From a virus (taxonomy: Duplodnaviria > Heunggongvirae > Uroviricota > Caudoviricetes), in the IMG/VR virus record IMGVR_UViG_2778261541_000007: a DNA stretch of 7,660 nucleotides; one strand, given 5' to 3'. The notes beneath the pieces are model-generated. The model saw only the letters and a program-made list of their open reading frames with translations. It was not told where the DNA came from and did no database searches. A program made the position numbers and the translations under genes. Shown piece after piece: positions 1,288 through 2,814 of the stretch. The stretch's first letter is position 1, and each line of letters opens with the position of its first letter.

Positions 1288-2814
1288 ATGAAAAAAGCCA
1301 TAGCATATATGCGATTTTCATCACCAGGTCAGATGTCTGGCGACTCATTAAACCGACAGAGAAGACTTATTGCTGAATGGTTAAAGGTAAATAGTGATTA
1401 TTATCTTGATACCATAACATATGAAGATTTAGGATTAAGTGCATTCAAAGGAAAGCATGCACAATCAGGAGCTTTTTCGGAATTTTTAGATGCTATAGAG
1501 CATGGTTATATATTGCCAGGAACTACATTGTTAGTTGAAAGTCTGGACAGACTTTCAAGAGAAAAAGTCGGTGAAGCGATTGAACGTCTGAAATTGATTT
1601 TGAATCACGGTATTGATGTTATAACTCTTTGCGACAATACAGTCTATAATATTGACTCTTTGAATGAGCCATATTCATTAATAAAAGCCATACTTATAGC
1701 ACAAAGGGCAAATGAAGAAAGCGAGATAAAGTCAAGTCGGGTTAAATTATCATGGAAGAAAAAACGGCAGGATGCACTGGAATCAGGTACGATTATGACG
1801 GCGTCTTGTCCGAGATGGCTCTCCTTAGATGACAAAAGAACGGCTTTTGTTCCAGACCCCGACAGGGTGAAAACTATTGAGCTAATTTTTAAACTCAGGA
1901 TGGAAAGGCGCTCATTGAATGCAATAGCCAAGTATTTAAATGATCATGCTGTAAAGAATTTCTCAGGAAAAGAAAGTGCATGGGGACCTTCTGTAATTGA
2001 AAAATTATTAGCGAATAAAGCTCTGATAGGTATATGCGTACCTTCATATCGTGCAAGAGGGAAAGGGATAAGTGAAATCGCTGGCTATTATCCCAGAGTC
2101 ATATCAGATGATTTGTTTTACGCTGTACAGGAAATTCGGTTGGCACCTTTTGGTATTAGCAATAGTAGCAAGAATCCTATGCTAATAAATCTACTTCGAA
2201 CAGTTATGAAGTGTGAGGCTTGTGGTAATACCATGATTGTTCATGCGGTATCTGGAAGTTTGCATGGCTATTATGTTTGTCCGATGAGAAGATTACATCG
2301 ATGTGACAGGCCATCAATAAAAAGAGATTTGGTTGATTATAATATCATTAATGAATTGCTTTTTAATTGTAGCAAAATTCAACCAGTGGAAAACAAGAAA
2401 GATGCTAATGAAACTTTAGAGTTAAAAATTATTGAGCTTCAGATGAAAATTAATAATTTAATCGTTGCATTGTCTGTCGCGCCTGAAGTTACCGCTATAG
2501 CAGAGAAAATAAGACTATTAGATAAGGAATTACGAAGGGCTTCGGTATCATTGAAAACTTTGAAGAGTAAAGGTGTAAATTCATTCAGTGATTTTTATGC
2601 TATTGACTTAACCAGTAAAAATGGACGAGAGTTATGCCGTACACTTGCCTATAAAACATTCGAAAAAATCATAATTAATACGGATAATAAAACCTGTGAC
2701 ATCTATTTTATGAATGGCATTGTTTTTAAATACTATCCTTTAATGAAAGTAATATCCGCCCAGCAGGCGATAAGTGCTCTCAAATATATGGTTGATGGTG
2801 AGATTTATTTCTAA
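1288..2814 (+). CDS. ybcK: Large serine recombinase (resolvase/invertase-type catalytic domain, recombinase domain, zinc ribbon, coiled coil), 508 aa
   Basis: N-terminus AIAYMRFSSPGQ...SLNRQ...LLVESLDRLSREK fits the serine-recombinase catalytic motifs (catalytic Ser in RFSS, DRLxR box). Cys cluster CEACGNT...YYVCPMRRLHRCD fits a zinc ribbon. SD aggtg lies 7 nt upstream of the ATG. Length matches K-12 YbcK. Sits in a very AT-rich stretch. Confidence 0.9.
   Translation: MKKAIAYMRFSSPGQMSGDSLNRQRRLIAEWLKVNSDYYLDTITYEDLGLSAFKGKHAQSGAFSEFLDAIEHGYILPGTTLLVESLDRLSREKVGEAIERLKLILNHGIDVITLCDNTVYNIDSLNEPYSLIKAILIAQRANEESEIKSSRVKLSWKKKRQDALESGTIMTASCPRWLSLDDKRTAFVPDPDRVKTIELIFKLRMERRSLNAIAKYLNDHAVKNFSGKESAWGPSVIEKLLANKALIGICVPSYRARGKGISEIAGYYPRVISDDLFYAVQEIRLAPFGISNSSKNPMLINLLRTVMKCEACGNTMIVHAVSGSLHGYYVCPMRRLHRCDRPSIKRDLVDYNIINELLFNCSKIQPVENKKDANETLELKIIELQMKINNLIVALSVAPEVTAIAEKIRLLDKELRRASVSLKTLKSKGVNSFSDFYAIDLTSKNGRELCRTLAYKTFEKIIINTDNKTCDIYFMNGIVFKYYPLMKVISAQQAISALKYMVDGEIYF

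Follow-up and report, generated by a model that had tools for sequence, protein, structure and literature searches.

SprA (YokA), the large serine recombinase of SPbeta, is known from Protein Data Bank (PDB) entry names and established knowledge as the integrase of its own prophage, for which the recombination directionality factor (RDF) SprB and the attachment (att) sites have been described. The elements moved by TnpX and TndX occupy many target sites and excise as circles. At the small end of the catalytic superfamily, DNA inversion is carried out by the Pin recombinases, which other cryptic prophages of K-12 encode (PMC12529663). Here, we analyze ybcK, a gene located at positions 1288 to 2814 (plus strand, ATG start) of a 7,660-nucleotide stretch of viral DNA (IMG/VR record IMGVR_UViG_2778261541_000007, hereafter the window) and encoding a large serine recombinase of 508 amino acids (aa). 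According to open reading frame (ORF) calls and Pfam, the window represents a DLP12-type defective lambdoid prophage. The gene has a name, and existing annotation calls it a recombinase; the literature describes it as being of unknown function, and we found there nothing further on serine recombinases acting in DLP12 or lambdoid phages and no reports of YbcK recombination activity or of a directionality factor.

Our data show that YbcK has all parts of an integrase-type large serine recombinase and is maintained by selection, while the phages hosting ybcK integrate at argU by means of their own tyrosine Int/Xis system. YbcK neither inverts nor excises anything in sequenced Escherichia coli. 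We propose, with a probability of about one-half, that ybcK represents a functional accessory integrase module that was captured into a phage cargo slot.

Results

A Pfam scan of YbcK revealed three integrase domains and no further domain: Resolvase (PF00239, aa 4 to 161, E value of 5.5e-19), Recombinase (PF07508, aa 191 to 284, E value of 2.3e-14), and Zn_ribbon_recom (PF13408, aa 302 to 357, E value of 7.9e-08). In an alignment of 30 family members reaching down to 28% identity, R9, S11 (the nucleophile), Q15, D87, R88, and R91 are invariant, and the zinc-ribbon residues C309, C312, C331, and C339 are conserved at a level of at least 90%. The AlphaFold2 (AF2) model, with a predicted local distance difference test score (pLDDT) of 81, places in order a catalytic domain, the long helix E, a recombinase domain, a zinc ribbon, three long helices, and a C-terminal sheet. 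In window coordinates, all on the plus strand, the catalytic resolvase domain together with helix E (aa 1 to 166, based on PF00239 and the AF2 helix from 128 to 166) corresponds to 1288 to 1785, with the S11 codon at 1318 to 1320. The recombinase domain (aa 178 to 285, based on PF07508, the AF2 model, and the alignment to SprA) covers 1819 to 2142, and the zinc-ribbon domain with its four cysteines (aa 300 to 345, based on PF13408 and Cys conservation) covers 2185 to 2322. The predicted coiled-coil helices follow at 2323 to 2568 (aa 346 to 427, based on AF2 helices 346 to 364, 368 to 397, and 402 to 427 and on the alignment to the SprA coiled coil).

Structural comparison using Foldseek identified full-length serine integrases as the best matches, with SPbeta SprA first (4e-20), followed by PhiC31 and Bxb1 complexes. 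While a PDB search with the single YbcK sequence returned zero matches, a profile search succeeded, retrieving SPbeta SprA (8e-20, from the recombinase domain to the coiled coil), PhiC31 integrase, and the TP901-1 catalytic domain. YbcK has the catalytic Ser/Arg/Asp domain, the recombinase domain, and the four-Cys zinc ribbon of a large serine recombinase, and the model predicts the coiled coil that is expected in the zinc-ribbon region. A previous interpretation made from the DNA alone, which we refer to as the sequence-only reading, had assigned serine-recombinase motifs, a zinc ribbon, and a coiled coil to this ORF; Pfam, the alignment, AF2, and Foldseek all agree with this assignment, with the resolvase, recombinase, and zinc-ribbon domains all being present and no catalytic residue having been lost in the 30 sequences.

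Inside ybcK, a 24-bp palindrome with perfect 11-nucleotide (nt) arms (TTGAAAGTCTG-GA-CAGACTTTCAA) lies at 1535 to 1558, over the catalytic motif ESLDRLS. We rejected it as a special site, as it is explained by the quasi-palindromic codons of ESLDRLS, and partial versions are present in homologs.

All eight of the ybcK alleles compared, from the K-12 type to the SE15/Perceval type, read intact. The ratio of nonsynonymous to synonymous divergence (dN/dS) ranged from 0.05 to 0.10 for every allele pair with a dS of at least 0.03 (dS reaching up to 0.19) and, for the same pairs of genomes, was as low as or below that of ybcN, rusA, and ren. Judging from these ratios, ybcK is maintained by purifying selection and is not decaying. 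The idea that it belongs to a decayed element is contradicted by these values, by the intact reading of all alleles, and by the viable phages that carry the gene. Divergence within ybcK is mosaic, with several alleles being at most 1% from the window in the first two-thirds of the gene and 4 to 8% in the last third, and recombination breakpoints were found within ybcK itself. The last third (2101 to 2814) exists in two diverged allele classes, 4 to 8% apart, and the break tracks the downstream cargo inexactly: one locus (L139) is of the K-12 type yet has a diverged 3' third.

The ybcK region was detected in 1,430 of 5,426 complete E. coli genomes, nearly always as a single copy, and the order P-ren-emrE-ylcJ-ybcK is collinear in 1,396 of these 1,430 genomes. 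In all annotated loci that we opened, ybcK lies in a lambdoid prophage, with ren on one side and the nin genes on the other; no host DNA adjoined ybcK in these loci, some of which are truncated prophage remnants. Wherever the displayed stretch extended to the end of the prophage, its integrase was visible there, and intact relatives of the prophage carry int and xis. The gene order of K-12 matches that of the window and begins with argU-intD-exo'-'P-ren-emrE-ylcJ-ybcK, so that intD adjoins argU, the place of a primary integrase, while ybcK is internal. Furthermore, 12 isolated-phage records carry ybcK (Perceval, 4A7, Lambda_4C10, D2, 1W, 3W, Turner, and the PhiR series), and the full genome of Perceval encodes a tyrosine integrase and an excisionase, 10 kb from ybcK; the Perceval paper names emrE, not the recombinase.

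As these phages have their own tyrosine Int/Xis, YbcK is an accessory recombinase and not the prophage integrase, and its presence in isolated phages, including Perceval with its tyrosine Int/Xis, marks it as a regular component of working phages. The sequence-only reading had already separated YbcK from the integrase of the prophage, and the argU-intD arrangement in K-12 and the Perceval genome bear this out. Its statement that the prophage uses a tyrosine integrase holds for this prophage type, as seen from K-12 intD and from int and xis in the relatives, but not for the window itself, which contains none. Its remark that ybcK has no obvious partner gene also stands, as we found no conserved one. 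The loss of ybcK has come about through ordinary events, either by internal deletion or, beside an IS1 (insertion sequence 1) next to emrE, together with everything downstream; in one locus, an IS3 is inserted just 3' of an intact ybcK.

In the window, ybcK is flanked by emrE (699 to 1030, plus strand, Pfam PF00893) on the left and by ybcL (PEBP family, 3279 to 3830, plus strand) and ybcM (AraC family, 3840 to 4637, plus strand) on the right. The emrE-ybcL-ybcM trio is contiguous and free of ybcK in 2,628 E. coli genomes, adjoining fliE in both loci opened. Compared to this contiguous trio by blastn and local alignment, the window contains an additional segment of ~2.1 kb (1039 to ~3120), which comprises the post-emrE hairpin, ylcJ, ybcK, and 300 bp of 3' flank. 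In blastn, window positions 621 to 1038 match positions 6001 to 6419 of a fliE-locus block (L019) with 91.4% identity and positions 3124 to 4854 match its positions 6424 to 8154 with 89.6% identity, only ~4 bp separating the two stretches in the block. Local alignment to L019 sets the right edge of the insert at 3112 to 3124, and alignment to an Escherichia albertii locus (L025), where the same trio lacks ybcK and lies beside a tyrosine integrase next to sapD, puts the edges at 1037 and ~3117 to 3181.

Because E. albertii and the 2,628 E. coli genomes have the trio uninterrupted, and because ybcL and ybcM occur as a conserved pair throughout Enterobacterales and in Pseudomonas, insertion of the 2.1-kb segment into an older trio is the simplest reading in terms of parsimony. 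The suggestion of a nested element in the sequence-only reading thereby gains support, given that the ybcK-bearing segment is absent from an otherwise collinear trio.

In E. albertii NBRC 107761 (L025, 3964 to 7359), the trio directly follows the tyrosine integrase gene next to sapC/sapD, with amino acid identities to the window of 70% for EmrE, 89% for YbcL, and 82% for YbcM, and the trio thus travels on at least three different vehicles. The fliE-locus copy (L019, 6001 to 8154) extends ~185 bp into the phage nin leader, reaching the start of ybcN, and is followed by an IS200/IS605 element; from its sequence, this "chromosomal" trio looks like a relic of the phage slot or the source of it. 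An IMG/VR contig (3300029728_000157; L140) appeared to be a phage with an empty site (ren-emrE-ybcL). We rejected it, since its emrE is chimeric, switching partway (4225 to 4551) from the prophage-type to the fliE-locus-type allele, and its gene order recurs in no complete genome among the 5,426; assembly probably produced this chimera, unless it is a rare recombinant.

Searches for footprints of recombination by YbcK were negative. A synthetic joint of both flanks, representing the excised allele, was compared to the 5,426 genomes and had a best match of 93.5% identity, the remaining matches being the diverged fliE-locus block with 88 to 90% identity. Alignment scores for direct repeats, either between the insert ends or between the ends and the empty site, were equal to those of shuffles (P values of 0.09 to 0.9). 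Among centered 44-bp imperfect palindromes in the two spacers flanking ybcK, between ren and emrE, and in the nin leader, the best matched at 14 of 22 positions (P of ~0.2), and the empty site scored lower for palindromy than the mean of the null. Hence, no att-like palindrome is significant at either edge of the insert or in the empty site.

The DNA to the right of ybcK varies, consisting of ybcL-ybcM, of ~300 bp of noncoding DNA, of an alpha/beta hydrolase gene, or of a P22AR-C fragment with assorted small genes, and the breakpoints are scattered (+0, +66, +280, and +417 nt). Such scatter argues for ordinary phage mosaicism instead of single-site exchange, and we consequently rejected an integron-like cassette exchange at one site 3' of ybcK. 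We also dropped the idea that the type-B 3' flank is what remains, in degenerate form, of the P22AR-C gene found 3' of ybcK in other alleles, as the two show no similarity. When the K-12 type is compared with the other alleles, identity drops sharply right after the stop codon, to ~65% in the 3' flank at 2815 to 2885.

A 50-bp inverted repeat is located at 3013 to 3062, with perfect 13-nt arms (AAAATACGTGACA / TGTCACGTATTTT) separated by a 24-nt spacer. It was stronger than all shuffles (300/300 and 200/200), is invariant across 44 K-12-type loci, and, as RNA, folds with a z score of -4.8, with no match in Rfam. The repeat is confined to the K-12-type flank; no comparable repeat was found near other ybcK alleles or homologs, and the arm motif is not enriched near homologous recombinase genes. 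Split copies, which might have represented attL and attR, were found in neither IMG/VR nor metagenomes, and we rejected this interpretation: all 41 copies in IMG/VR are intact, as are 20 of the 25 in metagenomes, and the other five are unrelated chance 20-mers. We presume that the 13/24/13 arrangement resembles the outer-arm symmetry of PhiC31/Bxb1-type attP sites. The repeat could be an unused att-like site, an operator or other protein-binding site, or an RNA hairpin.

YbcK homologs with 40 to 60% identity are present in Atlantibacter, Yersinia, Erwinia, Pantoea, Ewingella, and Citrobacter. Six of them are located after tail genes near the host junction (L004, L007, L012, L145, L146, and L147), with two of these six abutting the 3' end of an ssrA or tRNA-Ser gene. 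Two others lie in the replication-to-Q region, a nin-like slot, of lambdoid prophages (L016 and L017), L016 also having a tyrosine integrase in view, and one homolog is found in plasmid-like DNA. As seen from these sequence contexts, the YbcK family inhabits the accessory zones of temperate phages. A primary integrase accompanies the YbcK relative in both phage types for which the integrase end is visible (E. coli and Pantoea); that the remaining homolog loci also have one is our conjecture.

The neighbors of the homologs vary, with the exception of two recurrent sets. A pair encoding an ~80-aa protein and a UmuD-like protein of ~107 to 130 aa is present in five prophages (L004, 9092 to 9684; L012, 12207 to 12772; L146, 7325 to 7890; L147, 7212 to 7845; L145, 6178 to 7975), before the recombinase gene in four of them and after it in one, with a UmuC-like gene in between in L145. 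A KGG gene lies 3' of the recombinase gene in two loci, L017 and L145. Upstream of the Citrobacter koseri homolog (L014), at ~9740 to 9806, there are at least nine TTCTTGT heptamer repeats; the recombinase gene of this locus is placed divergently to its neighbor, a PilV-like gene that matches Shufflon_N faintly. The DUF1367 gene that is split around the L017 homolog was considered as a target duplication and rejected: its two copies are only 83% identical, indicating a mosaic joint and not a fresh duplication.

The spacers flanking ybcK measure 257 bp (from the end of emrE at 1030 to 1288) and 464 bp (from 2814 to the start of ybcL at 3279). While the sequence-only reading had given both lengths exactly by ORF coordinates, the upstream spacer is not empty, as RefSeq annotates the small ORF ylcJ there (~1079 to 1230, plus strand, as annotated in K-12). 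This sole small ORF adjoining ybcK is frameshifted in many strains, being labeled as such by RefSeq in EC19, Yu5, and CB7453. In the window, the frameshift results from the changed length of a T run at 1111 to 1118, which has six T's in K-12, seven in EC19, and eight here. A terminator-like hairpin follows emrE at 1062 to 1096 on the plus strand (GAGGCTC..GAGCCTC plus a T-rich tail; RNA fold of -14 kcal/mol, z score of -3.4) and is kept in K-12, SE15, and EC19. In addition, a Rho-dependent terminator has been placed in the ybcK leader (PMC4150792).

The closest complete-genome matches to the window are 99.4% identical. GC content drops to 0.30 to 0.41 over ~600 to 4650, compared to ~0.50 on both sides, in line with the AT-rich cargo block of the sequence-only reading. 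An exonuclease remnant (1 to 92) is followed by the C-terminal end of P and by ren (100 to 630); the joint at ~93 to 99 is identical to that in K-12 DLP12 and marks a deletion that took out the immunity and replication-origin region. The nin region (ylcH, ybcN, ninE, ybcO, rusA, ylcG, and quuD) starts at 4669, and its conserved leader (4669 to 4854, plus strand) bounds the variable ren-nin slot on the right at a fixed position. The conserved nin module begins exactly at a promoter-like site (TTGATT-17-CATAAT, 4670 to 4698). Hairpins with perfect 10-nt arms are present in the emrE leader (648 to 682) and in the nin leader (4702 to 4730), the latter being kept also in prophages without ybcK. On the 3' side of quuD lies another variable cargo slot, occupied here by a Blc-like lipocalin gene (6875 to 7399, minus strand), in K-12 by the IS5-disrupted porin gene nmpC, and in SE15/Perceval by an ompC-like porin gene. 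Between quuD and the lipocalin gene, positions 6805 to 6848 gave an Rfam match to Betaproteobacteria_toxic_sRNA that is below the gathering score (28.6 versus 50 bits, E value of 0.013) and is most likely a chance hairpin.

Discussion

In our model of an accessory integrase module captured into a phage cargo slot, the 2.1-kb segment would have been acquired from another temperate phage through nonhomologous mosaicism, not through its own site-specific insertion. We prefer mosaicism because there are no significant end repeats or palindromes, because the right-hand breakpoints are scattered, and because breakpoints occur within ybcK. The whole cargo block rides in the ren-to-nin accessory slot of DLP12/Perceval-type lambdoid phages, and YbcK would be made only upon transcription read-through of the leader hairpin and the Rho-dependent terminator. 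The protein would then carry out conservative recombination in the standard manner of serine integrases, wherein dimers bind two sites of ~40 to 50 bp and synapse as a tetramer, S11 cuts at the central dinucleotide, and subunit rotation is followed by religation. The candidate site would be the inverted repeat at 3013 to 3062, the only statistically outstanding sequence nearby.

Several points weigh against this proposal. No DNA substrate of YbcK was found, and none of the 5,426 E. coli genomes contains a recombination product. Since the inverted repeat is present only in the K-12-type flank and absent from other ybcK alleles and from the vicinity of homologs, it is not a general YbcK site, unless other alleles use a different one. 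Purifying selection implies that the protein matters, not that it recombines DNA. The polarity of the change, insertion and not deletion, is a parsimony argument from sequence over three contexts, and the sole apparent empty site in a phage context is the chimeric L140, unmatched among the complete genomes. Finally, pR and N are deleted in this defective prophage, and therefore the proposed read-through expression cannot operate here.

Alternatively, though this seems unlikely to us, the segment may be a self-inserting mini-element that YbcK placed site specifically just 3' of emrE and that is now locked in the absence of an RDF, serine integrases being unidirectional without this factor. The presence of ybcK directly after emrE in 1,396 of 1,430 genomes fits this scenario, but constant position is equally explained by vertical descent and homologous exchange. 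Likewise, the edges of the indel are discrete and lie in intergenic DNA, but they lack significant direct repeats, the empty site is no more palindromic than chance, and the right end is not conserved among ybcK alleles. The L017 homolog does adjoin a truncated copy of a phage gene, although with 83% identity this duplication is a mosaic joint, and the excised K-12-type allele is present in 0 of 5,426 genomes.

A broader and more doubtful interpretation would regard YbcK and its relatives as a distinct group of accessory large serine recombinases that provide a second, conditional integration route or move cargo from phage to phage, with 3013 to 3062 being an attP left unused in the K-12 type.

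It is improbable that ybcK is an inert passenger, a neutral relic kept through linkage to useful cargo such as emrE. This view is consistent with the lack of a recombination footprint in any genome, with the silencing of ybcK transcription by Rho (PMC4150792), and with the deletions and insertion sequences that remove or flank ybcK in some strains. However, dN/dS values of 0.05 to 0.10 at a dS of up to 0.19 are impossible by linkage alone, ybcN and rusA, both functional phage genes, are constrained to the same degree, and all catalytic and zinc-binding residues have been retained.

We give even less credence to a repurposed protein that is kept for another purpose than recombination, such as DNA-binding regulation with an effect on stress tolerance. 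In a sabinene-tolerant BL21 line, ybcK mRNA was increased ~15-fold, and tolerance was raised by overexpression of ybcK and lowered by its deletion (PMC7181518). Nevertheless, this phenotype comes from one study and lacks a mechanism, the home of ybcK is viable phages and not the host chromosome, and a pure DNA binder would not need the catalytic Ser/Arg that is invariant across the family.

Lastly, the other role suggested in the sequence-only reading, that of an invertase flipping an adjacent segment to switch the expression of neighboring cargo, is close to refuted: while serine recombinases include invertases, among them the Pin proteins of other K-12 cryptic prophages (PMC12529663), and long noncoding spacers lie on both sides of ybcK, YbcK has integrase-type domains and is far larger than the Hin/Gin/Pin type, no inverted-repeat pair brackets a segment (the best pairs, 24 to 25 nt with 72 to 79% matches, are at chance level in AT-rich DNA), and there is no inversion polymorphism, with 667 of 684 K-12-type loci collinear over the whole window and 12 of 12 annotated loci in a single orientation.

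About a quarter of complete E. coli genomes carry ybcK, as do inducible phages like Perceval of the Crohn's disease-associated strain LF82. If YbcK is active, it would constitute a Gram-negative, E. coli-native serine integrase and a possible genome-engineering tool, and lambdoid phages would be able to hold a second integration system in reserve. Should it be only a well-preserved passenger, the lesson narrows to the composite nature of the DLP12 AT-rich cargo block, in which emrE-ybcL-ybcM would have been split by a later recombinase insertion, an aspect that is new here.

Among the known systems, PinE, PinQ, and PinR belong to the same catalytic superfamily and are also extra recombinases of K-12 defective prophages, but they are ~190 aa long, have a C-terminal helix-turn-helix, and invert a tail-fibre segment that lies between short inverted repeats, whereas YbcK, with 508 aa and integrase domains, has no invertible segment and differs in this from Hin, Gin, and Pin in general. 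TnpX and TndX (of Tn4451 and Tn5397) are, like YbcK, large serine recombinases, and they move small cargo-carrying elements; in contrast to these elements, ybcK shows no excised allele, and its context is the same in 1,396 of the 1,430 E. coli genomes that carry it. PhiC31 and Bxb1 integrases match the full-length fold of YbcK and share its catalytic residues and domain order, but there the integrase gene adjoins attP and encodes the only integrase of the phage. The closest relationship is to SPbeta SprA, the best match both by profile (8e-20) and by fold (4e-20), from the recombinase domain through the C-terminal part, with the same domain order and a similar length (545 aa, compared to 508 aa for YbcK). 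Nevertheless, the two proteins are only ~19% identical, and YbcK, unlike SprA, is encoded by a phage that integrates by means of a tyrosine recombinase.

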